A stretch of 64,000 nucleotides of DNA, taken from Obrimoposthia wandeli (Eukaryota). The notes under the pieces are model-generated. The model searched no databases, was not told the DNA's origin, and was given only the letters and a program-made list of their open reading frames with translations. The position numbers were made by a program, and so were the translations under genes. Where the stretch lies: the NCBI GenBank assembly GCA_977020255.1, contig CDROCS010001655.1, positions 248,001-312,000 of the forward strand. Direction: 5' to 3'. Position 1 is the first letter of the stretch. Each line of letters opens with the position of its first letter. This document shows, one piece after another, positions 1 to 62,544 of the stretch.

Positions 1-1
1 G

Positions 2-2538
2 AATAATAAATTCCATTATGCTGCAATTCCCAGTTTAGATCGTCTTCTAAATTTAGATAATGGAGCCTTACCGGTTAGGATAAGGTGTAAGTGGTGTCAT
101 AGATGTTTGCATGGATTCCGATCCGAGCTCTCTTACAGCAAACATCTCACATTATGTTCACTGAATCCTGATGACAATACGCTATATAGCATGCCTAAGG
201 ATAAGGATTTAAAATTCAGGGATTGGGCAAAATGCATAACCGTGGAATTCAGGGTGTATGCAGATTTTGAGTCAATTTTAGCATTGCACGACCAGTATGA
301 GAGTATTCACCTATCGGCTTCGGCAGGACTACTATTCTTAGGCCCCAATATTACACAGTATCATAAATTTTCCGGTCCAAATTGTATTTTAGATTTTATG
401 TTAAAATTAGAAGAATTAGGAACAACAATTGTCAAACCGTGGTATGATCTTAATGCTCATCAAGAAATGATCATGACAGGCATAGACTGGATTAATTTTA
501 ATTTTTGTAGATTATGTTATTCGTGTGGAACCCAGTCTAAGTTAGTCAGAGATCACGATCATGTTACGGGGCGATACTTGGGAGCGGCGTGCAACCTCTG
601 TAACCTTGGCCGTCGTCTCCCTAAAAAATCACGAATTCCAATCGTGTTTCATAACCTCAAAGGATATGATTTGAATCATATACTTAAATATGCGTTGGGT
701 ACATTAAGCTCTTGGGAAATTTCATGTATACCTCAAACTTCAGAGCAATATTTATCTTTAACTGCATTTACTGAATTCTGCAGTTCAAGATTCATAAATT
801 CTCTGCAGTTTTTGAGCGGGTCTTTAAAAAATTTAATGGCATCTTTAAATGCATGGCCAATCACATAGTCAGTGTTCCCAGCTTCGGTTAATGATAAGGG
901 GATTTTTCCGTATAAATTTGCGAAAACCTTTGCAGATTTAGAAAATATCACAGAAATCCCACCCATAACTGAATTTGAGGGTGTAAGTCTTCAAGGCTAT
1001 AATGAGGCCCGTACATTTTGGGCGAATAATTGTCGAAATCTTTTAGAATATATGCTTTATTATATGAAATTAGACATTTATCTTTTAGCTGATGTTTTTG
1101 AGTCCTTTCGTGTAAAGTCTTTAGCAGAAGATGGGCTAGATCCCATGCATTTCTTTAGTTTACCTGGTCTTTCATGGGCAACAGCAATAAAAACTCTTAA
1201 AATTAATATCGAGTTACTGCAAGATCCCGCGATGTATCAAATGTATGATTATGGTATACGCAGTGGAATGACTTTTGTCAACAAACATCATGTTGTCAAA
1301 AATCAATCCACAGAGATTCTGTACATCGACATTAATAATTTGTATGGGTGGGCGCTTAGTCAACCTCTGCCGCATGCCAATTTTAAGTGGGTTTATGATG
1401 AGGAAGAGTTGAATAAGTTGATGACATATTTGGCTACTGTTGATATAGTTTTATCAGACATCGGCTATTTGGTTGAGGTTGACTTAACAATCCCTTCCAA
1501 TGTTCATGATAAATTAGATGATCTTCCAATAGCGCCTGTTCATCAATACTCACCTAATTCAAAGGTTAAAAAATTATTGTTAACCCATGAAGACAAGTTG
1601 AATTATATTGTGCATTGGCGGCTTCTTCGATTCTACTTAAAGTTGGGAGCGAAAGTTACTCAAATTCATCGTGCTATAAGCTTCAGTCAAAACTTTGTGT
1701 TTAAAGACTATATTGAGAAGAATTCTAGAAAACGTAATTTGGCCACTAACAAATTCGATCGGGATTTTTACAAGTTAAAAAGTAATAGCCTCTTTGGATA
1801 AACTGTAGAGGACTTGCGGAAACGTATTTGTCTACGGTTTTGCAATGATGAACGTAAACTAATAACATATACTAGCAAGCACAACTTCAAGCGTAGTTTT
1901 ACAATTCCAGATGACTTGGTAGCAGTGTTATTAGGAAAACAGAGTATTTGTCTTGATCGACCGAGTTATATAGGTTAAACGGTTTTAGACATTTCTAAAC
2001 TCAGAAAGTATGAGCTTCAATACATAGAATTGGAGAAATATCGACGAGAATTCAATTGTGAGATTAAAATTGCAGCTGGGGACACTGACTCTTTCTTTTT
2101 AGAATATAGGAATGTTAGTTTAAATAATCAATTATTACTGGCAATGTTTAAGGACAACTTATTAGATACCCATAAATATCCCGCTAACCATCCTCTACAC
2201 TCTATGAGTTTAAAGGATATTATCGGGAAATTTAAGGATGAAAGCGATGGACAGGTTTCGTATGATGATTGTATTTTCCTACGCCCTAAATGCTACAGTT
2301 TACATGCATCTAATAATACATGTTCAATGAGAGCAAAGGGTGTGGGAAGAAACAATCTTAAACATGAGGCATACCGGAAAGTTTATGATACTGGGTGTAT
2401 TGAAAGCGTTGATTTATTTCAAGAGCCCATCAACTGTATTCCCATAAATCAACAAAAATCGCTTTGAGTAGTAATGACGATAAGCGCTTTTGGGTAGAAA
2501 AGAACGCTAGCCTGGCTTATTGACACTTCCGAATTTAA
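2..2538 (+). pseudogene. polB: Protein-primed family B DNA polymerase (pPolB), 5'-truncated by the window edge, disrupted
   Basis: One frame open from base 2: HYAAIPSLDRLL..WCHRCLHGF..KHLTLC (C2H2), CYSC..VRDHDHVTGRYLGAACNLCNL (EndoVII-like), FHNLKGYD (ExoII), YMKLDIYLLADVFESFR (ExoIII), YIDINNLYG (A), KLKSNSLFG[K] (B), GDTDS (C), KIALSSNDDKR..LAY[G]HFRI. Stops at 866-868, 1799-1801, 1976-1978 and 2521-2523; ~10-nt deletion near 2412 relative to copy 2. Confidence 0.95.
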
Positions 2539-2803
2539 ACGGTTTTCATTTTTTGATTTTTTTAGTTTAGTTTTTTAAAATTTTAGATCCCTATTGCACC
2601 TAGACTCTAACTTATTGTTATTTCAAAACATTTTTTAGGATGGACCTTATCTTTACTGACAGACCTCGTTGTGATGTTGTTTTTAATAAATGTATTAAAA
2701 AAAATGTCGTCTTATGTCTTTTATTATTTTACCCTTATATTTTTAGGGATTTAAAAAAAATAATTCAAAATAAAACATTTAAAATTTTTATTTTTATAAC
2801 ACA

Positions 2804-3184
2804 CTAATCATTTTGCAACGATAACCATAAAATACATAAATGTCCGCAGTTTCTCGTCGCAGGATCCTGATATTGTATCTTGTTGTAAAATACTCTTCTT
2901 CGTCCTTTTTGAATAGTTGAAACAAGTTTGTGTGGATAATACATTGCAAGTGGATCAAATACATGTATTGTCCACTCTCTAACATAAATGGCTATCCAAT
3001 GTTCTCCTTGTAAATTCGAAGTATGAGTATTGATAATGTATCTTCCAGATTGAAAAAATGGAATCATATCAATAGGATAAACTCCATTGAATTTATCACC
3101 CAGGACCTTCTCTGCTGATTCTTTTACTTGTTTTGAACTAAATAAAAATTAATAAATATAAATTTAAAATATGTCTTACTCCAT
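2804..3184 (-). CDS. Adenain-like cysteine maturation protease, two exons: complement(join 3180..3184, 2804..3137), 112 aa
   Basis: GEHW (His), FDP (Asp), YQ..CGHLC (Gln, Cys). ATGGA|GTAAGA..TTTAG|TTCAAAA splicing of a 42-nt intron (3138-3179) gives MDSKQVKESAEKVLGDKFNGVYPIDMIP in frame with the ORF-track ORF. The same intron is present in copy 2. Confidence 0.88.
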
Positions 3185-3185
3185 T

Positions 3186-4413
3186 CTATAATATGACAGT
3201 TCTGTTTTTATTGATTTGTATTTCCGAATCAAATACTCCGTAAATAAGCACCGTAGTAGGATTTGTTAAAGCTGCATTGAACTTAATTTCTAGTCGTAAA
3301 TTTCCATCCTTTGGTAGTTGGCATTGGTTTATATCAAAGTCTGGTGCCAAAACAAATGTGAAGAACGGGCAGCTGTTTTTAAAGTCAGTGAAAGAAATAC
3401 CATTGTTTATATTTTTATCTAGTTGGCCCAAATTCCGAATAATAGATTGCGTATAAGCCAAAGCATAAACGTTACCTTCGAAATCTGTTTTATATGTTTC
3501 ACGATAATCAGTATTTCTTGAAAGTGTCACTGAACCTACATTAAGATTGTCAAATTGAGTTGCATCTGTCGTATAATTTCCTAGAAACTTTGCAGTTTTT
3601 AGAAAAGAAATTAAAATGAATTTCGGTAATCTTACATCACCAAAAATTTGATCCTTATTAAAAGCTTGTGTACCCGTACCTAAAGAGTAGGATATAAGTT
3701 TAGTTTCTCTAATAGAATAACAAGCATTGTTTTTTTCCATTCCTATATTATGTGCCATTAAAACTGATTGCTCGGTTTTAACTCTTCGGACATACAATTT
3801 TGCATCCAAAATATAAAGTGTAGGTTTTAGAACGTCTGTGCTTATCAAAGAAAAATTCCATTTATTACGTTTCAAACGAAAATGTACATTAACACAAGGA
3901 ATTAAATATTTCGGTTGTTCAAAGAAATTCAATTTCAAAAACCCACACATTTCGTAAGCTTTAGAACCTGCAATCCATTCTTTGCGAGTTGCGACCGTTT
4001 TATCATAACCAATGGTTGCCAAATTAGTATTTTGAGTATCAGTACTATAATTCAAAAGACTTTCAATCAAAGCTTTATGAGCATAGGAAGATTTTCCACC
4101 TTCAATTTTGACATTATTAAGAGTAACAATGGCATCACTAAATAAAGAATTAAATAGATAATTTACAGGTGTTACATCTGCATTTTCATCTAAATTAGTA
4201 CCATCCCGATTTAATACTTTTATTTGAACATAAAGCAAAGTATCATTCAAATCTAAATACTCGCTATTGGAACCATTAATATTAAATTCTAAATCGGTTA
4301 AAGTGGTTCCTGAAACTGAGTTAACTAGAAATATTTCTTCAAAGGAAGCATTATCTACCACTACTTGTGGTATACAATTACAAAATACACAATACAGTTT
4401 TGGCGCAACTCAT
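3186..4413 (-). pseudogene. Major capsid protein (double jelly-roll, hexon-like/PY), one frameshift near the 5' end
   Basis: EYLDLNDTLLYVQIKV, NYLFNSLFSDAIVTLNNVKIE, YLIPCVNVHFRLKRN, PKFILISF, GNLRLEIKF..LIYGVFDSEIQINKNRTV match Polinton MCPs. ATG at 4413 (MSCAKTVL) is one base out of frame with PQVVVDNASFEEI. Confidence 0.88.
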
Positions 4414-4787
4414 TTTGCAAATATTGTTCCTTCAACTTTCTTATGTTTGTTTATATTGATTTTTTGCTTCTTTTTACTTTTAAATCCACTTCCTCCTTGG
4501 CTTTTATTTGATTTACGTTTTCTAATCAAATTAGCAATTTCAGGTAAAACATTATCAAGTTCATTAAGCGAATGCTTCTTAAAAGTTGGTATTAGTTTAT
4601 TGTCCTTAGATGAAAGGTAGTCCTTTCCTAATTTTGATATAAATCGCCCGAGTCTCTTTAAAAGAGGAAAGGCAAATCTACCTAATGTTCTAAGCCAGCC
4701 AGATCCGTATTGTTTACCAACAAAATATGGTAATTCTCCACCTTGTTGGCTTTGACTATAAGCTTCAATTATTGCTGGATTCGCCAT
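4410..4787 (-). CDS. Small basic core-like virion protein with Gly-rich motifs and an amphipathic segment
   Basis: Intact 125 aa ORF: QQGGELPYFVGKQYGSGWLRTLGRFAFPLLKRLG and a Lys-rich C-terminus. Sits between penton and MCP; conserved in copy 2. Confidence 0.7.
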   Translation of the reverse strand: MANPAIIEAYSQSQQGGELPYFVGKQYGSGWLRTLGRFAFPLLKRLGRFISKLGKDYLSSKDNKLIPTFKKHSLNELDNVLPEIANLIRKRKSNKSQGGSGFKSKKKQKININKHKKVEGTIFAK

Positions 4788-5828
4788 TTTGTTTTCTTAA
4801 ATGTATTGTTAAACTTGTCTTGGCCCCGTACGTGAAATCTATTAGTTGTCCGGAATCATCTCTAATATTTACTTCAATATTGTTTATAGAAAAGAGAGAA
4901 ACTGGAAGATACATTGGTTGATCTATACACATACCGACAGCGTCCCCATCTCTAGTTTCATTTTTAGATATCCATATTGTTCTCAAAAGTGGAACTCGCC
5001 GTCTTCCTACAAGCGTTGGTTCTATTAAATTAGTATAAATATATAAAGATTAACAGCATTTAAAAGTTTTGCCTTATTTTTAGCTTTTATGGTTTTTATT
5101 GTATGGGTTTCAAAGGTATTTCTGTTTAAACCAAGGTTTTTAGCGAGTTTATCATCAAATAAAACTCGTATTATATTGCTCTTTACTGTAAACGTTATTT
5201 TACCATTTTTTAATGTTACACATTTATCGAAATATTCACTACATTCCTTCTGTATTAATTTACAGAAATTCACTTCACTATCTAATTTATAATCTTTTGA
5301 AAACATTTTCAGTTCCACTACATACTTTGGTCTCGTTTTAACTAAAAACACTTTTGTTACTCTATCAGGAACATTTTTAAACGATTTACATGAGGCTATA
5401 TCAGATCTCTTCATAACTTCTACATGTATACTGTCAAAACCGAATTGAAGAGCTTCTCTATCAGATCCAAATATAATTTGAATAGGTTTAAAAAAATGTT
5501 TTAGTATATTTTTAAATCTGACTTTGTTTTTTTCATATATTACTTTCACTTCTTTATCTATACAATTGTAATAGAATTTTCCTTTACTATCAAACCCAAT
5601 CACAACTTCAATTGATTTTTCATGATCAATTTCTTTTGTAAACGAAATATGTGAGTTTTTTCTGATAGTAATTGGAGAATAATAAAAGGAAAATTCTGTT
5701 AAAGCCGCTTCCCATTCTCCTTGGAGATTTATAGGATTTTCCCAATCGATAATAAAGCTACTAGCGTAATTATCTGGTTGAGTCTTCGGACATCCGTTAC
5801 TAGGTAAAACCATATACGTAGACTTCAT
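4765..5828 (-). pseudogene. Minor capsid protein (penton/PX), one frameshift at ~5045
   Basis: N-term YMVLPSN..PDNYASSF..PINLQGEWEAALTEFSF; C-term YTNLIEPTLVG..VPLLRTI..PMYLPV..IEVNIRDDSGQLIDF..SLTIHLRK. Copy 2 reads LYIYTSLIEP in frame across the site. Confidence 0.88.
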
Positions 5829-6853
5829 ATTATATTAGATGCTGATATCCAAGTTGGATCTGAATAACCATGCCATTTAACATAGTATTGTTTATGTTTA
5901 CCGGCACCCTTAGATTTTAATATTTTTTGAATACGGAAAACGCTAGGTTTACTTGATATTACTTGTAGTTCTTGCTCGTAAAATTTACCGTGAACGATAT
6001 TATTGTCAGCATCTTTAATAGTATACATTATTGGATTACTCTTTTGATCAATTTTACTTATACAAAATATTTCATTGCTCCAATTCTGATCAAAGTTTTT
6101 AATAAATGGAGTAGAGCTAATTTTCGAAATTCAGACATATTCGTTTTTCTTATATTTAGCTTTTTTAATATTTTCTTTTTTATTCCTGTTCATCCAAATA
6201 TTCATAGAATTTGTATTAGTAACATCAACAGGTCTCATTCCCTTGAGATCTCTATGTTCCGAGTGATTATAGGCATGTATTATTTTAGGTAAAACTTGGA
6301 TCCATTTTTTATTTCCTTCTTTTGTGAAATACTTTTTTATTCGATCTCTTAGAGTACGATTAAATCTTTCTACTACTGCTGCTTTGTATTGTGAAAACAC
6401 AGAGTAATGATTTATATTATTTTGTTTAAATAAAGATTGAACTTGCTTATTATAAAATTCTTTTCCTAAATCAGTTTGCACATTTTGTGGAATGTCCTCT
6501 TTCAATATTTCTTTAATGGCTTCAAGCATAGCTATTGAAGACTTTGCTTTAACTGGAATTGCACGAGCAAACCTGCTAAATACATCAATACATGTTAAAA
6601 TATATCGATATCCCTTATTAATGGAAGAATATGGGATCATCTCCATCAAATCCATTTGCCATAAATTATTAGGACCGCTGGTTTTGTAAGCTCTAGTTGG
6701 AAACCTTCTTCTCATCGGCTTGTTCAGACTGTAGGCTAACTGGTCGCTCAGCCATTTCTGCGTTTTCTTGTAATTTTGTTTTGTTCTTTTTGCTAATTTT
6801 GAAACTCCTGTGTAGCCAATTGGATCTTTTGGATTGAACCATATCTTCTCCAT
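5825..6853 (-). pseudogene. Retroviral-type (rve) DDE integrase with C-terminal chromodomain, one premature stop
   Basis: KIWFNPKDP..GVSKL; DDE motifs WQMDL, QTDLGKEF, VVERFNRTL. YV*ISK (TGA 6131-6133, canonical VRISK) reads on in frame into YTIKD..GKFYEQELQ and the chromodomain FRIQKILK..YYVKWHGY..TWI. Confidence 0.93.
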
Positions 6854-6911
6854 TACAACAATTTGAATAGATAGAAAATTTAAGTTTTGGTAAAGAAGGG
6901 CTAGCACCCAT
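6693..6911 (-). CDS. Candidate small myristoylated protein overlapping the integrase 5' end in another frame
   Basis: ATG in good context (gatATGG) after a CAG acceptor-like site; starts MGASPS (MGxxxS) followed by NCC. Confidence 0.35.
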   Translation of the reverse strand: MGASPSLPKLKFSIYSNCCNGEDMVQSKRSNWLHRSFKISKKNKTKLQENAEMAERPVSLQSEQADEKKVSN

Positions 6912-6939
6912 ATCTTTAGCTGATTTTAGAAATAATTGT

Positions 6940-7269
6940 TTATGAACGTGTCGCAGCTATAATACTACTGATAATTGAAGCAACAACTGGAATAACAGCC
7001 CCTATGAAACCACCATTATGTTTAAGAATAATATTTCGTTTCCTTTTTTTACTTTTTACATTAGAAATATCTAAATGAGTTTTTATATATTTCTTTAATA
7101 TATTTTTCCGATTTCCAACTTTTACTCGACCCAAAACTATATCATACAAAACTTCCAATAAATCATCTACAACAAAGGATGGAAATGCTTTAAGAATAAT
7201 CATTCTCTTATTAGAAGAGGCTTTGACTAAAGCTTTAAAATAGGGTATGCTTCTTTGTATTTTCTTCAT
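6940..7269 (-). CDS. Polinton-type basic protein ending in GG-F plus an amphipathic helix
   Basis: Intact 109 aa ORF; LLEVLYDIVLGRV core and C-terminal HNGGFIGAVIPVVASIISSIIAATRS. Confidence 0.7.
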   Translation of the reverse strand: MKKIQRSIPYFKALVKASSNKRMIILKAFPSFVVDDLLEVLYDIVLGRVKVGNRKNILKKYIKTHLDISNVKSKKRKRNIILKHNGGFIGAVIPVVASIISSIIAATRS

Positions 7270-7300
7270 TTTAATAAAAAAGGTTCAATTTAAATATTGT

Positions 7301-7441
7301 TTATATTCGAAGCCATTTAAGTTTTTTTTTATTTTTAACTACAGATTTGATTAATTTTTTCACTTCTTTTTTCTTAATGATTCTTTATTTTGATTTCTTA
7401 GATTTTACTTTACGTTTTACTATCAACTTTGTAAAAGGCAT
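7301..7441 (-). pseudogene. Lys-rich micro-ORF (46 codons, one internal stop), candidate DNA-condensing peptide
   Basis: Hand translation MPFTKLIVKRKVKSKKSK*RIIKKKEVKKLIKSVVKNKKKLKWLRI; fills the gap between the ATPase stop and the next gene. Confidence 0.45.
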
Positions 7442-7448
7442 TGCGAAT

Positions 7449-8096
7449 TTATTTTTTATAATTGTTCTCTATTTGTTTATAAACAGTTACTCCCTTAGAA
7501 TTAAATATGTCTGTTAAAACACGTAAATCATCTGGGCAAGCTTGTGTAAAGTCAATAAATATATACCCATGTGCTTGTTTAGCAGCATCGTGGAATGAAT
7601 AAACTAGAAAGTTCTTATTTTGAGGAAATGCCTGTCTGGCCACAAAATCAACAACTGTTTGATCTCTAGGATTTTTAAATAAAACTAAGTAAGGTACATT
7701 AAGATTTCTTGTTCTATGGTGACCTCCTTGGTGAAAAAGATTTTGAGTGATAAATATAACTGTTACTTCACGATGTCTTGCAATCTTTGTAAATAAATTA
7801 TTAAAGTCTGATTCCTTGTTAGCCTCCTCATACAAATCATCAATTATTATTACATCTTATTTTTTCAATCTTTCACACCAATTTGCATCAAATCCTTCAA
7901 TAAATTTTATACCCTTCAACTTGCAAACTTCTGTTTTGGTTAACCCGCTTTCCCCTCCTCCACCATGATGCCAATAAATATTTTTGAAACTAAATTTGAA
8001 AAGAGATTCATTTTGCAACAATTTACATACGAAATGTGTCTTTCCACTTCCACTGGGACCAACTATTTGAAATACAGCATTATTATTTAGCTGCAT
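7449..8096 (-). pseudogene. A32/FtsK-family genome-packaging ATPase, one premature stop
   Basis: Walker A GPSGSGKT; TAA at 7857-7859 directly before Walker B DVIIIDD in the same frame; RHREVTVIFITQNLF, RTRNLNVPYLVLFKNPRD. Confidence 0.93.
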
Positions 8097-8134
8097 TGCA
8101 TATACTCTTTCATTTTTTAATATTGTTTATATTA

Positions 8135-8407
8135 TCATAGAAGTTTCCTTATTGAAATGTACAATGTTAGAACGATTGTAGATGAAATACAAAAATTAAT
8201 TAATGAATATTTGGCTATAATTTTAATTATTTGTGTACGATTTCTAAATTCTCGAATAACGTGTGATCTAACCAATATTTCAATGTTATCTCTTGTTATA
8301 TCATTATTTTTTAATTCTGATAAAATTTCTTTATCCCTAATTTTTCCAGAAAATATTTCGTCGGCAAGCCGATCCACTTCATTGTCTCTATTTATAGTAT
8401 TATTCAT
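8135..8407 (-). CDS. Small ORF (90 aa) with a C-terminal hydrophobic segment, unknown function
   Basis: Intact ORF in the element's minus-strand block; ends IIAKYSLINFCISSTIVLTLYISIRKLL. Confidence 0.5.
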   Translation of the reverse strand: MNNTINRDNEVDRLADEIFSGKIRDKEILSELKNNDITRDNIEILVRSHVIREFRNRTQIIKIIAKYSLINFCISSTIVLTLYISIRKLL

Positions 8408-8435
8408 TTGAAACAATAAGTTTAAACGGGTTTGT

Positions 8436-8932
8436 TTATAGAAAAGATAACAAGATGTAATAAGATATATTTTCTAAAATCAAATCAACAATGTTTGGAC
8501 AATCAAAATTTTTCAATCCCAATATAATAACTTTACCACTGGAAAATATATTTACACATAGCGGTTTAAACTTCAAATAACTGAGAGCAGGAAAATTTTC
8601 TGGTTCAAACATGCATTCTTCTTTCATTTTCTCTGCAGTTTTAAAAAGATTTATCTGTTTCCCGAGATTAGCCGAAATCGTGATTGATTGTATTGCAGTG
8701 ATTCGAATTCCAAATGGTAAATTGAACCCAAGTATTGGTATTTTGCATCCCATAACACGACAATTTCCTAAAAGAATTCAATATGGAAATAAAAAAACTA
8801 ACCTGTAGGAAAAATAACAACTGTGAAATTGTCAAACCTTTCCACATATTGTCTCGGCTTCCATTCATTGAATGGTAAGTACGAAACATCATCTTCTGTT
8901 CTACCTTTATAATTTATATTTACGAGTTTCAT
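8436..8932 (-). CDS. TATA-binding-protein-like protein, two exons: complement(join 8803..8932, 8436..8767), 153 aa
   Basis: Repeat 2: SITISANLGKQINL..FEPENFPALSYLKFKPLCVNIFSSGKVIILGLK (cf. TBP YEPELFPGLIYRM..LIFVSGKVVLTGAK). Removing a 35-nt GT-AG intron (8768-8802) restores repeat 1 MKLVNINYKG..VVIFPTGNCRVMGCK. Confidence 0.82.
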
Positions 8933-9181
8933 TAGACTAAAATTGTATTCTATAAAATCTTCTTTATATATGTCTGAACCTGCTTTTTTATTGCACGTTT
9001 CTTGTAATTATCTTGCAAACCTATTATAATTTGATGATATATTTCTTCCAATCAAATTTGATTTTTAATAAGGATTTAGTCCAATCAAATTCAATGCTGT
9101 AGTTATATTAACCAATGAGATTCATGTCTTTGTTAGAAATTAGTATAAAAGAATGCGTCATTGGAGGACAAATCATAGTAA
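8933..9181. promoter_or_regulatory. Candidate bidirectional Pol II promoter
   Basis: Minus strand TATATAAA (8970-8963) with TTAGT Inr-like at 8940-8936; plus strand TATAAAA 9144-9150; CCAAT at 9048, 9081 and 9112. Confidence 0.5.
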
Positions 9182-9662
9182 ATGCATTCATATCAAAGAC
9201 AATTATCAACGATGGATGATAGCCAACGGGTATTAAACGATGAGGAAGATATAGAAATGTTTGAAGAATCGGATAAGGATATGTATGAAGAAGTGAAACA
9301 ATATTTCAAATACAAAGTCAGATTCTTGAAGAAGGCTCAACTGATTGCTTTAGTAAATCCTGTGACAATTGAAAGAATAAAGTTCAGCTACTATCTATCA
9401 TATATTCAAAAACCAGATTTTCAATATCTTAAACAGAAAGTTGAAAAGGCAGTTCCGAATTTTACTTTCAATAAGAACGAACTTTATATCCGAGGACCCG
9501 ATGAAGCATTTCAAGATGACTATGGAAGATATGTTGATATTGACATTTCCAAAAAAGAAGCAATGGACTGTAACAATTCGACTTTATGGTTACAAGAAAG
9601 ATGAAATGGGGACAAAGTTGCCTATGTGGAAAATTGAACGTGCTCATATTTCTATGTTTTAA
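9182..9662 (+). pseudogene. Accessory ORF A (paralogue of ORF B; possible OB-fold SSB), one frameshift at the A6 run ~9551-9556
   Basis: ORF 9182-9604 shifts into the frame ending QWTVTIRLYGYKKDEMGTKLPMWKIERAHISMF*; AATAAA at 9674. Confidence 0.6.
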
Positions 9663-9800
9663 CTTTTACGTGTAATAAATTGTAATCGGTTTTACTATAT
9701 TTCTTTCATTTAATAATCAGTTTTATTTATTTAAATATTTGTATCTTATATGTATTTTTTTTATAAACATTGTTTTTTTAATCAGTTTCCTTATTTTAGA

Positions 9801-10203
9801 ATGGATAAGAGATGTGTAGCAAATTTTTATTATCCAGAAAGAATTTCAAAAGGAAAACTATGTAATATATTAAAGAGGCATCAAATTATACGAGTTATGA
9901 ATCCTGTGAAAATATCAAAAGTGGAGAATAAATATCTCATCGAAATTTTAACAACATCTGATATTGATCAATTGAAACATATTTTGGGATTTTACATTCC
10001 TGATTATGTATATGAAGGAAATTGTTTCCAGCTTGAAACTGATCCCAGTCTGGATTTTAAAGATGATCTAGGATATTTGATTGCTCCAATTCTAGATGAA
10101 GAACTATGGAATATCTCAATACGTCTCAATGGATATTTTGCTGATGACGGGAAAATGCAGCCTCTGGACTTTGAGTGAAGCCAATATGTTGTTTTATGTT
10201 TAA
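9801..10203 (+). pseudogene. Accessory ORF B (paralogue of ORF A), frameshift at ~10164
   Basis: LKRHQIIRVMNPVKI..LWNISIRLNGY; the alternative frame continues WTLSEANMLFYV*, matching the ORF A C-terminus; AATAAA overlaps the stop. Confidence 0.6.
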
Positions 10204-10339
10204 TAAATATTTTGAAAAATAATTTTGACTCGTATTTTGTTTTTTCTCCTCTAAATTATATAGATCTGACCGATTTTTTATCCTATAAATAGATATTTAA
10301 CATGTAGTAATTTATTAATCTAAAATCAATCTTAAAAAT

Positions 10340-10590
10340 AGTAGTAATATATTATTTGATATTTCGTCTGTGATAAGCCACCGGGGCCAATATGGATTCC
10401 CGTGGTCTTCTCTAACCACTTTTGATATTCGCAGTAAATTTTTTTAAAAATTGTGGTGGGAGGGTACCCCCTTCCTTCACCCTTTGGGTGGAATGGAGAC
10501 ATACGCGAAATTTCACTACACACACATACACGGTTTTAAAGGACAGAGGAGGGGAGGGGGTGTGGATTAGACCGGACACATCCACCTACT
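10340..10590. repeat. Putative right terminal inverted repeat of the Polinton
   Basis: Non-coding, GC-richer, with G-runs and short hairpins; ends CTACT. The left TIR is not in the window, so this is unverified. Confidence 0.45.
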
Positions 10591-17191: not shown

Positions 17192-17671
17192 ATGTCTGAA
17201 TTTGACATAGTGCCTATAAAAACGTTAAATGGTTTTGTGAAAATAAAATGTTCATTCAATGATACTATACAGGTAAAAATTAGTTTAGGTGTAAACGGAA
17301 AAATTATGATTATTAGGATTTAATTGTTAAAGTTCTCAATGGTGATTATGAACCTTCGTATTTTGGTTTACAAACAGAGGATGATCGACAGAAGAATAGT
17401 CGTCGTTTCATTTGTAATCGACTACAGTGGGGATATTTGAGGTTGATTTTGGGTCCAAATCAAATCTATCTCTCAGTACGAGTTTATCCGCTGGATTTGA
17501 CGACTACTCTTTCAGAGTCGATAATGACTGTGAGATACTTGAAGGAGCAGGTTCGATTACGCTAGTGAGATTGATTAAAATGTGGATTTAGTTGTGCGAG
17601 CAAATGAATCCTATGATGTCCGATCAAACTAATTTGGAGGTTGCGCTTGATTTGGGATGTCTCATACACTA
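17192..17671 (+). CDS. PTK2: FAK-like exons 1-3 (FERM F1-F2) with 44- and 41-nt introns
   Basis: MSEFDIVPIKTLNGFVKIKCSFNDTIQ|DLIVKVL..SYFGL..VRVYPL..TVRYLKEQ|LCEQ..LEVALDLGCLIH. Confidence 0.8.
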
Positions 17672-55500: not shown

Positions 55501-56169
55501 TTTGTTAAATATATAGTTAAGGTAAATGTATAAAAACTTACGTTTTTTAGACTTAAAAGTTTTTTTTACAAGATTTTGCAATTTTTATTTTGCTACTTTA
55601 TATGCAATATATTATACTCGATATATATATTCAAATTAATTTGTAATGTATTATAAGTAATAATGTATTAAATTTAGAAGTTTAAGTGTAATTTCATAAG
55701 TTTATTAAGTGTCAGTTATATTTTAAAGTAAAATTATAAAATGTTACTGTTATAATTTGAAAAGTATTTAATTTTATAATATTTTATCATTTTTTAATCA
55801 TTTTTGCTATTATTTTTTGCAGAGTGTACATATAGGGTCGTGAATTTGATTTCAAGCTTGTGGTCAAAAATATTGAAATGTTTTTTCCCTCTAAATATCT
55901 TCCACTTTAAGTACACACCGTCAACGAAATCTTAACAAAATACTACGATTTTTTGAATAAATTAATTACAAATATTTTCTACTTCATGATACACACACAG
56001 ACGTAGACAAAATCTTAGGAATATACTAATAATTTTAAAAAAAATTGAATAACAAGTTGTCATTGGACGATGAAATATGGTTAGTCTGATGTTTGTGTAA
56101 ATAAAGAGACCTATTTTCATTATTTTTCCCAAATCACATATACCATTTTACAACAATGCTGATCTAGAC

Positions 56170-57850
56170 AAAGATATGGAGGTGGAACTGTATAGAGAAT
56201 TCTATCCAGTACAGCATCGAATGCCACCCCATCGTAGTACATTGACTTACTTAGTCAAGACTTGACGGTGGTGAGCCAAAGAGTAGAAGAACCAGTACCA
56301 CCAAGAGAAAAGGTAACAGGAAGAGGAAAAGCAACACGAAGAGGAAAGCAACAGGAAGAGGAAAAGCACCAACAAGAGGAGTATCATGGTAGAGTTTGAC
56401 GAGTCTCCGAACCACGACTCGATCATTGCTGAGTTGGAAGAAGATGAGCAGCTTCTCTTCACGGATGAATGGGACAGTCTTACACCTACTGCTACTCCGA
56501 CTCTTACTCTGACTTATACTTCTGACGATGCAGTGCTGCTACCTAAAGTATTCAGAAGGCAACAAACTCCTGTGAGACGAGTGAGGAGAATAAAGGCGAC
56601 GAATGAGGTTAGATTAGTTATTTAATTCATATGGTTTTAATTTTTTTTCAAAAACGTCATCTGGATATGGCACAATTGGTGAATTCAGTGGAGAGCCTGT
56701 TGAAACCGCAGATCATCGCCAGCCAATGCTTTTAGAAGTTGCCAATGACTCAGCTACGATATCTGGCATTCTTCGATAATATTCAAGTAAATATTTAATA
56801 TGAGAAAATATAATTAATTATTACTTATTTATGTAGGAAACTCATCAGGTGGAGCAAGTTGAGGAGAATATGCTGGAAGAGGTTGCTCATATATTACTGG
56901 TGGACCGGAAACAAACAGTGGTGCGGAAGTACAAGTTAACGACATAAACTGTCCGGAATAAGAAGGCAAAGTTGGTGAAACATGCAAACCTATATGTTAG
57001 AGAGGTAAATTTTTAATTTATTAATGTTTTTAATGCAGGAACCTTATCAGGTGCAGCTATTTGAGGAGTTGCTGGGAGAGGCTACTTCCATCACACCAAG
57101 AATCAAACAGCGGACGGTGGTGCACAAGAAGAAGAGGGTGAGAAAGATGACCACCAGTCTGTTAGCATCTACCGAGGTGTTGATTGGACAACAAGATAAT
57201 CTACCATGTGCCGATCTTTTACGAGAGGATTCCCGTCGCTCCGATCGAGATTACTCCTCTTCCTAACCAGTGCCGACTGCAGGGGACCTTTCTGGTGATT
57301 CTACTCCGACGCCATCCGTTATTCAGCAGCTATCCAGCCTAAGTCAGAACTTGGCGAGAGTTTTGGAGACTGCATCTCCTCTTCCAGTGGCATCAACAAG
57401 TCAGAATTTGAAGAGGGCTTGGCTTGATGCTGCGTTAGACGAGTTCATGACAGAACTGAAGACTCTGCAACAACTGGCCATGTATCCTGTTTTCAACTGG
57501 CAACATGAAACAGTGGCACGACAGCTGGATCGCGAGAAATAGAAGAAAAAGAAGAGAGCACAAAGGAAGAAGAAGGCACCAATACCGTCAAATTCATCGC
57601 CCAGGGCATCTACTTCGGCTGCAGTGCCTCCCCAAAGGTTGCAGCCAAGCCTGCCAAAGCCGCTTGGGACGGCAATTGCTGCACAACAACCAGGAGTTGT
57701 GTAGCCGAAGAAGAAGACGGGTCAACCTAAGAAGAAAAAGCCAGTACCAATTGAACCTCTACTACTAAGTCGGAGAGACATCGATGAGGATGATCCCGAT
57801 GATGACTTTGCAAAGTGTTTCAATATAAATATAATTTTTAAAAAGTAATA
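56170..57850 (+). pseudogene. Decayed multi-intron gene for a disordered, acidic/basic, probably nuclear protein
   Basis: Introns 56787-56836 (50 nt) and 57005-57038 (34 nt); TGRGKA repeats, acidic DSIIAELEEDEQLLFTDEW, PKKK motifs; several stops and frameshifts. Confidence 0.55.
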
Positions 57851-59352
57851 TGTTGTCTTCTTTTTTTAAATTTTATATTAGAATGTTAAAAAGATATTAT
57901 AGAATGATTTCTTTTGAATTCAAAAATATTTTTTAAACCAATATATTTAACTAAATTTTAATAACTTTGAAAAATAATATACAGTATATAATAAAATATA
58001 AAAATAAAATATATCTTTCTAAAAAATATGTAAATGTTTTTTTCCTATTATCTTTAAATTTTACTTATTTAATTATAATAAATATATAAAATTTTGTTAA
58101 AATACTTTGTAACTTTAAGGTTTTTTTAATATAATTTTAGTAAAATGATTACTTATTGATAACTTCTAGTATACTATAGATATATAAAATTAATTGTTAA
58201 ATAAATTATTTCCTTTTATAAAATGTAATTGGATTAAAATTATTTTGAAATTTATATAAATTGGTTCAACTTTATTTATCATTTCATTATTAAAAAATGA
58301 AATTCTCTAAAATGAAGAAGCTCTTGACACGGATAGAGAAAAATATCAAAAAGAATGCTAAGAAAAAGAGACCTACAAAAGAAGATTTTGAATCAGAATT
58401 TGTATGCTGCTGCAACAAAGTGAATTGAAAGGGTGGAGATACAAGACATTATGTAATTTACTTTTAGAATACTTAGGTAGGTCCTATAATTTATTTTAAT
58501 ATTCATAGGTGCATTGTAAATATATAGCAACATTAATGAAAATTATGAATACGTTAAATTATTTTTCTATTTTAATAAAATTTGATTACTTGTCTTTTTC
58601 TTTTAAATTATTATAAACCAAGTCATTTACGTTAAATTTAGGTTAATTATGCATGAATGTTTTATTGATTTTGATTCTATAAATTAATAAAGATGTATGC
58701 GATGTTTTTCGTCCTTTACAATTTGTATTTCATATAGATATGCCGTTTAAGTCTTTAGATCATAAGAATAAATTTACTAATTTATATCTCACTAAATATT
58801 TTCATTTATTAAAATGGAATAAAGAAAATAAAAGTTTTTGTGAAATTTGTATTTTTTATAAAATTAAATTTAAATTTGATATTGAAATGGTATTTTATAA
58901 ATGAATGCCAAAAAATATAAGATATGAAAAATAGATTCTTTAAAATTAATATTAAACAATTTTAATATTTCACATGATTATTTATTAAAAATTCGAATAA
59001 ATATTTGCTGTCCATGTCGTGATCATGGTGAACATTGCGCATATAAGAAGTGTATAATTCTATCTTACTATTACCTGACATGCAAATAAACAATCCTTCT
59101 TATTAAAGAAATTAAAGAAATATAAATGAATAATTTCGACCAATAAGATAAGTGATATCTGTGGCATACATTTTAGTTTATAAGCTCCCACTTTTTTCAT
59201 TTAAATTCCCGATTTTTGAAATTATGAATATGCTAGTAATCTTATTTTTTAAAAATGTTATTAATTTTTAGATTTTTTAGATTACTTGCAACTTGTTCTC
59301 AGTGTAATGTGTTGATTCTGCTCCACATGGAGGAGAAACCTGACACACTACA

Positions 59353-59915
59353 ATGTTCGCTTACTATAATACAATGTATTATGGCTAGGTATATTACGTT
59401 TGCCCGTTCAACAGAACGATGAAGGACAATGAGTATCCGGTTTTCTTCACTGAACATCGAGCGCACTTGTTCAGCTTCACGGTCAACAGGAAGAAAAGCA
59501 TCATTCTATTGATGCACAATTCTTCGAATGGTCCAGCCCCAGTTCCAACAAAAGTTATATTCCAGCCTATGTATGGTCCTGAAATCGCTATGTCCGTTGT
59601 CTCTCTGGTTTCTGCAGCCGAGTCATTAACTCAATTTATAAACAATGGGTGGAGGAATGTAATCAATTAAACTGATTTTGAGGAGGAGGCGAACACTGTA
59701 CCAGCAACTCAACTGTCAAACAACGATTGAATGGATCAAATCACCTAGTCGGATTTCAAGTTGGAGTAGCCTCCATCTCAGTGGAACGACAATAGCTGGT
59801 TAGATGGAATTGACGAACCTGAGTTCCAGTTTATTTATGATCGTTGGATGGATGCTGTCGATTAAGAAGACTTTCTTTCCTAACAAACTGCAGATGGATC
59901 GGCTTCAGGTTTCAG
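59353..59915 (+). pseudogene. Decayed ORF with an acidic-aromatic C-terminal half, unknown family
   Basis: A single frame from ATG 59353 with several point stops; ends at a CAG|GTAATT donor, with an acceptor at 60000. Confidence 0.45.
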
Positions 59916-60023
59916 GTAATTCAGAGGTAATTCTTGTTATGATTTTAAAAAATTAAATTAAATAGGTCAAATAAATTATTTAATACTTTTTTTAATCAGG
60001 AACATTTTCTGAAATACCAATAA

Positions 60024-62430
60024 CTATTTGATTGAGGTCGATTTAACAATCCATCCTATGTACACGATAAATTAGATCATCTTCCAGTGACATCTGTTCA
60101 TCTAATTCAAATGTTAAGAAATTATTTTTAACTCATGAAGACAAGTTGAATTATGTGATACATTGACGGCTTCTTCGATTGTACTTAAAGTTGAGAGTGA
60201 AAGTCACTCAAATTCATCGGGTTAAAAGCTTTAGTCAAAACTTTGTGGTTAAAGACTATATTGAGAAGAATCCTAGAAAACGTAATTTGGCCCCTAGCAA
60301 ATTCGATCGGGATTTTCACAAGTTAAAGAGTAATAATCTCTTTGGTAAAACTGTCGAGGACTTGTGGAAACGTATTTGTCTACGATTTTGCAATGCTGAG
60401 CATAAACAAATAACATATTGTAGCAAGTACAACTTCAAGCATAGTTTTACAATTGTAGATGACTTAGTAGCCGTGTTATTGAGAAACAGATTATTTGTCC
60501 TGATTAACCGAGTTATATAGATCAAACGGTTTAAGACAATTCAAAACTTAGAATGTATGAGCTCCAATATATTGAATTAGAGAAATATCACAATGAATTC
60601 AAATGAGATCAAAATCGCAGCAGTGGATCATGACTCTTTCATTTTAGAATGTAGGAATGTTAGTTTGTAAATAGATTATTACCGGTAATGTTTAGTTATA
60701 ATTTACTTGATACCCATAAATATTCTATTAATCATCCTCTACACTCTATGTCTTTAAAGGACATTAACATAGCATTTAAGGATGAAAGCGAAAGCCAGGT
60801 TTCGTATGATGATTGTATTTTCGTATGCCCTAAATGATACAGTTTACATGCATCTAATAATACATGTTCAATGACAGCAAAGGTTGTGGGAAGAAACAAT
60901 CTTACACATGAGGCCTACCTGAAAGTTTATGATACTGAGTGTATTGAAAGCGTTGAGCAAACTAGCTTTATTTCAAGAGCCCATCAACAGTATTCCCACA
61001 AATCAACTAAAATAGCTTTAAGTAGTAATGACGACAAGGGCTTTCTGGCTTATGGACACTTCCGAATTGCAACCGTTTTCTTAATTTGATTTATTTTCAT
61101 TAGATCTTTTAATATTTTAGATCTCTATGCTACCTTTATTCTAACTTTTTGTTTATTAGATGCTTTTATAGGTTTAGCCTTATTTTTATCATTGCTGGCA
61201 GGTCTCTTTATTTGTGATATTTCACTGAATAAATGTATATTGAAAAATGTTTTGTCTTTTATTATTATTCATATGTTGCAGGGTTTTAAAAATAATTCAA
61301 AATAAAACATGTTTTAATTTTTTTATTATAATAACACATGTATTGTATCTTGTTGTAAAATACTCTTCTTCATCCTTTTTGAACAATTGAAACACGCTTG
61401 TGTGGATAATATATTGCAAGTGGATCAAATACATATCTTGTTCAATCTTTAACATAAATATCTATCCAATGTTCTCCCGGTATATTCGAAGTATGAGTAT
61501 TGAAATGTAACATCCTGGTGGAAAAACGGAATCATATCAATAAGGTAAACCCTATTGAATTTAACACCCAACACCTTCTCTGCTGATTCCTGTACTTGCA
61601 CTGAACTAAATTAAATTTATTAAATATTTATTACTTGAAAAAACTTACTCCATGTTTTTTCTTTTACAATACAACAGTTCTGTTTTTGTTGATTTGTATT
61701 TCCGAATCAAACACTCCGTAAATAAGCACTGTAGTATGATTTGTTAAAGTTGCATTGAATTTAATTTCTAGCCATTAATTTCTATTTTTTGGTAATTGGC
61801 ATTGGTCTTTGTCAAAGTCTGGCACCAAAAAAAATTTAAAGAATGGACGGTGGTTTTAAACTCCACTACCTTCTTGGCTTTTACTTGATTTGCCTTTATT
61901 AATTAAATTTCCAACGTCAGGTAAAACATTATCAAGTTCATTAAATGTATGCTCCTTAAAATTTGGTATTACTTTATAATCCTTAGATGAAAGGTAGTCC
62001 TTTCCTGGTTTTGATAAAAATCGATCGAGTTTTTGCATAAGAGGAAAGGCAAATCTACCTAATGTTTTAAGCCAGCCGTATCCATATTGTTTACCGACAA
62101 AATATGGGAATTATCCTCCTTGTTGGCTTTGACTATAAGCTTCCATTATTGCTTGATTCGCCATTTCGTTTTCTTAAATGTATTGTTAAACTTGTCTTGG
62201 CTCCGTATCTGAAATCTATTAATTGTCCAGATTCATCTCTAATATTTATTTTAATATTGTTTATAGATAAGCTAGCAACTGGAAGATACATTGGTTGATC
62301 TATACGAATACCGATAACTTCGCCAATTTTAGTTTGACCTTGAGATATCCGTATTGTTCTCAAACGTGGTACTCGCAAGCGTTGGCTCTATTAAACTAGT
62401 ATAAATATATAACATGTTAATATTATTTAA
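60024..62430. mobile_element. Second, diverged and internally deleted copy of the same Polinton family
   Basis: Collinear with 1465-5060: polB 3' half (60024-61087), protease (61340-61653), MCP 3' end (61660-61860), core protein (61860-62165), penton 3' end (62133-62430). About 95% and 88% identity in two hand-counted segments. Confidence 0.93.
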
Positions 62431-62544
62431 AGCATTGAATACAGGTGAAACAATTATTTCAGATTCATATTGCTACTAAATTCATATACACATCAAAACA
62501 TATTATTAAAATACTCCAATTTTTAGGTAATTGAAAAAGAATTA

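Follow-up and report, generated by a model that had tools for sequence, protein, structure and literature searches.

Intact Mavericks of vertebrates have been described with intronless open reading frames (ORFs) (PMC8097293), and the core genes of nematode Mavericks are likewise intronless, with introns only in host-derived cargo (bioRxiv 10.1101/2022.07.12.499685), as far as the available portions of these two reports extend. The element described here lies in the window, by which we mean the whole 64,000-nucleotide stretch of the Obrimoposthia wandeli genome that was analysed. It is like animal Mavericks/Polintons in its protein-primed DNA polymerase B (pPolB), rve integrase, A32-type ATPase, adenain-type protease and capsid genes, in its terminal inverted repeats, and in the 6-bp target duplication and length of about 16 kb of its family. 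Unlike the vertebrate and nematode elements of these partly available accounts, it belongs to a group with a putative clade-wide intron in a core gene, that of the protease, and has a second intron in a TBP-like gene.

Introns are known from several related systems, all described here from the available parts of the sources. The introner-invaded eupolintoviral elements of dinoflagellates (PMC12166617) are alike in having spliceosomal-type introns, but those are recent transposon insertions, mostly gained after integration, whereas here one old position is inherited across many element lineages and the interiors are unlike one another. Group I introns of PLVs from cryptophytes and other protists (PMC12220804) are alike in lying near the capsid gene; they are self-splicing, 309-376 bp long and placed in a small accessory gene, whereas the protease intron is of the spliceosomal type. 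Adenoviruses, as represented by the THEV splice map (PMC11304566), have a related protease behind the major capsid (hexon) gene, on larger messages and with no adjacent upstream splice site, and their pTP is made from two exons. The available part of that map describes no intron inside the protease coding sequence, and the splicing is long-range and alternative rather than of host-minimal introns. In the literature covered, mainly the accessible parts of open-access articles, no conserved spliceosomal intron is described for a Polinton core gene, and the available portions of PMC11296320, bioRxiv 10.1101/2023.08.22.554363 and PMC6431247 contain nothing on introns in such genes. What appears to be new at this locus, and is well supported by sequence comparison, is a clade-wide conserved intron in a core gene of a known kind of element.

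The element and its copies in the host genome

Positions 1-10590 of the window hold a Polinton/Maverick (copy 1) with pPolB, rve integrase, ATPase, TBP-like, protease and probable capsid genes. The 3' part of the pPolB gene (1-2467, plus strand; PF03175, E 3.6e-17) is broken by stops and extends before the window. Beside the protease gene, the minus strand carries the major capsid protein gene (3186-4413), with a frameshift near its 5' end and no intron seen; an rve integrase gene with a chromodomain (5825-6925; PF00665, E 2.5e-13) and a packaging ATPase gene recognized by weak P-loop matches (7449-8100), each with an internal stop; the two-exon TBP-like accessory gene (8436-8932; PF00352, E 1.6e-12); and the element end (10440-10590), a terminal inverted repeat starting AGTAG whose inner limit is approximate. 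The Polinton/Maverick hallmarks of pPolB, rve integrase, adenain-type protease and A32/FtsK-type packaging ATPase are thus all present, and the ATPase of the relative L097 matches Pox_A32 above the cut-off. The described trait of intronless core genes does not extend to copy 1's family, given the protease intron. The capsid gene product is a putative double jelly-roll major capsid protein. Its gene is positioned as the Polinton/Maverick major capsid gene would be, three of 36 capsid homologues match PF21738 weakly, and the atlas score to a double jelly-roll cluster is 0.97, at a low recognition value; comparison of the protein with the PDB by sequence gave no match.

For copy 1 itself, just one of the two ends was located. 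Among four pairs of stretches compared, one pair (L167/L168) represents a two-ended copy of about 16.3 kb with a repeat of about 145 bp and the same 6 bp at both flanks, and its genes are broken too. Several minor features were also seen. A tandem pair of genes in the window (9182-9604 and 9735-10178, plus strand) belongs to no Pfam family, and its members are weak paralogues of each other (28% in L167). The left end of L167 (near 2750-3070) has an inverted duplication of the terminal repeat, and subterminal CCACA tandem arrays occur in other copies (L168 and L169 among the stretches examined). The relative L108 has a ubiquitin-conjugating-enzyme gene near its left end (201-698, minus strand; PF00179), and L108 and L113 have two tandem minor-capsid-like genes each.

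A second copy in the window (56000-62431), accessory-arm genes included, is identified by DNA comparison as another member of copy 1's family, older, shortened by deletion and decayed. Both copies are dead through stops and frameshifts, and the protease frame of copy 2 is broken. The first-pass annotation had taken the two copies for two element lineages sharing an intron site. This does not stand: copy 2 as an independent deep lineage was rejected on its DNA identity to copy 1 (about 81-85%), and since host copies with capsid proteins 80-84% identical join copy 1 on short branches of the tree, copies 1 and 2 are age classes of one family.

The family is extremely abundant in the 1.35 Gb host genome. 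In an 800 kb sample (L242-L321), taken in even steps from seven long contigs of which five were first met in Polinton match lists, copy 1's family makes up 93,566 of 800,000 bases (11.7%; 4.6% at identities of at least 90%), rising to 16.1% when protein-level relatives are included. The sample gave 17 raw protease loci, four of which were dropped as matches to a non-protease extension of P0294; extrapolated from the other 13, the genome would contain about 22,000 such loci, a figure close to the 28,460 protease candidates of a first look. Their protease identities range from 50 to 96%, and in the tree they form at least four deep families.

A conserved spacer behind the protease start codon

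On the minus strand of copy 1, the capsid stop codon (3188-3186) is followed by a single base and then by a start codon plus two bases, ATGGA (3184-3180). Next comes a 42-nt segment (3179-3138) with the ends GTAAG and TTTAG, and beyond it an open frame of 110 codons (3137-2804) encoding, by homologues and a profile match, an adenain-type cysteine protease with residues His46, Asp61, Gln90 and Cys97 (exon 2 numbering). Read unspliced, the frame from the ATG ends after two codons. The first-pass annotation had proposed a 5-nt first exon and a 42-nt intron here; its coordinates are correct and comparison confirms the ends of the segment, as expected of a phase-2 GT-AG intron. The protease assignment is secured by relatives: Peptidase_C5 is matched by 37 of 42 aligned homologues, the window's own protease giving no match, and the family profile matches adenain (1avp, E 7e-11). 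A full HMMER search returned 1180 homologous proteins at E<=0.001, so that the lack of any match in a word-index search with the protease marks a limit of sensitivity. The motif ATG-NN-GT[AG]A[GA]..YAG occurs four times in 128 kb (both strands), and two of these occurrences are the two protease starts.

Alignment with copy 1 places exon 1 of copy 2 at 61653-61649 and a 43-nt intron at the same site (61648-61606, minus strand), with the same ends and a diverged interior, just as had been noticed at first. Identity between the two interiors is 0.69, which 191 of 500 shuffles also attain, as against 0.83 and 0.88 in the coding DNA on either side. Among best-matching host loci the full start-donor-acceptor motif was present in 29/30, 29/30 and 25/30, in sets that were picked by likeness to the query, overlap in part and say little about selection. 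Alignment of genomic copies at the site, a check put forward in the first-pass annotation, found the spacer in all 13 protease loci of the evenly spaced sample: ten have the full GT-AG motif with 38-43 nt, three have a damaged motif with the spacer kept, and none is intronless. An exact search of the host genome for the intronless junction of the young family gave no matches, copies with one substitution being missed by this method. Since neither copy in the window is alive, the conservation seen among host copies is a legacy of their ancestors rather than a sign of selection acting today. Conservation of the intron that does span lineages is provided by the other families of the host and by relatives from metagenomes.

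A search with the capsid alignment yielded 70 metagenome loci, of which the 33 with both capsid and protease matches were scored for the intron; the viral contig set held no capsid locus and one weak protease locus (L091), which was left out. Fifteen of the 33, from 11 lineages, have an AT-rich ATG-NN-GT..AG spacer at the same position and phase, 37-47 nt long and representing all three length classes modulo 3. A further 17 are spacerless and carry an in-frame Met near this position, the shakiest call being L124, whose capsid gene is frameshifted, and L150 was left unassigned. The 11 intron-bearing lineages are well separated from the window, with proteases 43-54% and capsids 48-58% identical. 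When each lineage is represented by a single row and the window is added, GT and AG are present in 12/12 rows, A at +4 in 12/12 and G at +5 in 11/12; identity across the 12 interiors is 0.620, compared with 0.608 for shuffles (maximum 0.633). The unspliced frame meets a stop after one or two codons in 15/15 intron-bearing loci. Comparing protease N-termini of relatives, as had also been suggested, revealed the counterpart of the split start: intronless homologues have a Met two residues ahead of the first residue of exon 2, and L095/L136, inside the clade, begin Met-Asp-Ser with no spacer, which is the N-terminus predicted by splicing.

Given the fixed position, phase and signals, the equivalent Met of intronless homologues and the immediate unspliced stop, the 42-nt spacer is very probably a true spliceosomal intron, probably gained once, in the ancestor of a clade of animal Polintons/Mavericks. 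The original proposal of a spliceosomal intron at a conserved position in a viral gene is thereby upheld by comparison across 11 lineages with fixed signals. Two features expected of a U2-type intron were found, namely consensus GT donors and AG acceptors (12/12 rows each) and an excision that restores collinearity with intronless homologues (L095/L136 and the outgroups). The AT-rich interiors hold many chance matches to YTRAY.

Expression, alternative readings and history of the intron

We predict with high confidence, from these sequence features, that the protease message is transcribed in the nucleus and spliced by the host U2-type machinery; the host spliceosome would have to excise the spacer for the start codon and the body of the protease gene to become continuous. 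In ten of 11 lineages, -1 to +7 nt separate the protease start from the capsid stop, and in most of the intronless relatives examined the start abuts the end of the capsid gene or overlaps it. On account of this spacing we slightly favour a protease read by re-initiation from a two-gene capsid-protease message, which the distance of 42 nt in L112 fits less well. The exon junction, 4-12 nt past the capsid stop, would be expected to escape nonsense-mediated decay; by the 50-nt rule, a junction this near a stop is too close to trigger it.

The intron probably persists since it is stuck: damage at either end would inactivate an essential gene, and nothing short of a precise deletion could remove the intron, which would be a rare event in an element copying DNA to DNA. 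An alternative that we consider unlikely, and that refines the reading as a true intron without excluding it, is that the intron is kept as a regulated gate, the capsid message going without protease until splicing is allowed by timing, tissue or dose. Retention would indeed yield a peptide of one or two residues in all 15 relatives, and the intron has been kept across a clade with capsid branches of 0.3-1.1 changes per site. Such a gate would also sit well with the lack of a convincing intron in the capsid, polymerase, integrase and ATPase genes of 21 stretches compared, where a scan gave seven candidates, each from one query only. However, the immediate stop is a by-product of the phase-2 donor consensus (GTAA or GTGA creating an in-frame TAA or TGA), and the donors and acceptors are strong and consensus-like, whereas retained introns are usually without such sites. 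One lineage of the clade and all outgroups, moreover, manage without the intron. We prefer the stuck intron to the gate for two of these reasons: the donor consensus by itself accounts for the in-frame stop, and one lineage is intronless. We are equally doubtful of a stronger proposal, in which the clade would depend obligately on splicing for virion maturation and the intron would be a host-controlled switch between transposon and particle, acting through the dead two-residue frame.

It is very unlikely that only the acceptor is used, being joined to a far donor as in adenovirus-like late leaders or to a trans-spliced leader, with the nearby ATG-GT incidental. Adenovirus late genes do receive spliced-on leaders (PMC11304566, in the part available), and the protease gene directly behind the capsid gene has no room for a promoter, but exon 2 is without its own start codon in most lineages, an ATG stands exactly 5 nt before a consensus donor in 12/12 rows, and the resulting N-terminus equals that of intronless homologues. 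Still less credence can be given to a spacer of plain intergenic DNA with the protease beginning at ATG 3067 or another internal start. AT-rich intergenic spacers are common and the ATG at 3067 is in frame, but its codon falls at residue 24 of exon 2, and starting there drops Gly18 (invariant, 42/42) and Val19. A Met at this place is not conserved: in nine of 11 lineages exon 2 has no in-frame Met until after the catalytic His, and L098, L110 and the window have one before it. The fixed phase of ATG-NN-GT and AG around a random interior likewise speaks against intergenic DNA. A start at ATG 3067 was therefore rejected for the loss of the invariant Gly and the unconserved Met. The least probable reading, strongly disfavoured, is insertion into integrated copies by a host introner-type transposon as in dinoflagellate Polinton-like elements, for although introners populate eupolintoviral elements and most were gained after integration (PMC12166617, in the part available), the protease site is shared by 11 lineages from other samples and at least four deep host families, and the interiors share no sequence between lineages. 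The hallmark of introners is many near-identical introns at unrelated sites, whereas the interiors compared between lineages at the protease site are no closer than shuffles; an introner origin for a single ancient gain is possible.

The reading as an inherited spliceosomal intron is matched by the trees, in which the intron-bearers all group together with 100/100 support and the outgroups are intronless. The first tree comprised only loci holding both genes, and two later trees had one row per lineage and five outgroups. L095/L136 is nested among the intron-bearers in two of them, in different places, and has no resolved place in the third, and a topology uniting the intron-bearers to the exclusion of L095 was not rejected by AU tests (p 0.279 and p 0.40). 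The simplest reading has the intron gained once, at the clade's base or close to it, and a later precise loss in L095/L136 is possible. The occurrence of the same 37-47-nt intron in 11 lineages found in other samples marks it as a long-standing trait of the element clade, and the earlier suggestion that these viruses are adapted to this host's spliceosome is not supported in that form. A recent, host-specific insertion was rejected on the same grounds.

Gene calling and other short introns

ORF calling was justified by the absence of introns in a protist survey (PMC10120064), and gene calling in a further study (bioRxiv 10.1101/2025.04.19.649669) likewise ignores introns, according to the available parts of both. 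Prokaryote-style ORF finders applied in large surveys would leave the protease of this clade mis-started or scored as defective. The first-pass annotation had anticipated that ORF-based annotation truncates or misses such genes, and ORF-based protein records agree: in P0277 the L110 protease has been started at an internal Met, and P0273, P0275, P0276 and P0289 have N-terminal extensions that are seemingly intron-derived. The intron is a rare genomic marker defining an element clade, and suggests nuclear, host-dependent expression of a virion-maturation gene. It also offers a clean junction assay for protease expression, which bears on whether Mavericks make particles.

A second element intron, the 35-nt one of the first-pass annotation, was located in the TBP-like gene (8802-8768, minus strand), where comparison of copies shows a GT-AG intron splitting a conserved TBP motif. 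It measures 38 nt in two other young copies, 35 nt being a variant of copy 1. Among TBP-like junctions of the host sample, read by eye as printed, 13 of 14 have a spacer at the same site (11 with intact GT-AG, two with a damaged acceptor), and that of L265 is contiguous with no spacer. Of the metagenome loci, L092 has this intron and L097, L108, L116, L117, L120 and L132 do not; since L097 and L108 have the protease intron without it, intron content varies among lineages. The compact TBP-like gene also occurs in distant relatives, and TBP-like genes are named in a figure legend on adinto-like viruses (PMC8502044, available in part). Accessory-arm genes contain further GT-AG candidates of 43-47 nt (near 7473 and 5046 on the minus strand of L168, in L170 and L172, and at 56996-57038 on the plus strand of the window), two of which, tested in three copies, all from the host, have one frame open on both sides.

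Short introns of the host were measured in a handful of CCT and proteasome genes rather than as a distribution. They are 40 and 48 nt (L183), 42 nt (L182) and 40 nt (L222) long, with longer introns in the same genes near 80-90 nt. The CCT4 protein of the host shares 54-66% identity with its best 120 matches, which where named come from many animal phyla, none of them close. Element intron lengths fit this short class, and so do those of the relatives' introns. The first-pass annotation had matched the element introns to a host minimal class on the strength of 41- and 44-nt introns in a FAK-like gene; the short class fits and a 41-nt candidate is present at 17551-17591 (plus strand), but the 44-nt intron could not be located in that gene. 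The FAK-like tyrosine kinase gene itself (about 13700-53500, plus strand) spans tens of kilobases with exons that are GC-richer, and its kinase domain match is strong and that to the FERM C-lobe weak.

Scattered beside the normal intron-bearing CCT genes of the host are about 20 divergent, intronless chaperonin ORFs of the Cpn60/TCP-1 family, each of about 550 aa (L187-L200, L202, L204-L207, L209 and L210), only one of which adjoins Polinton genes. Similar divergent ORFs resembling proteasome genes were seen at L229-L237.
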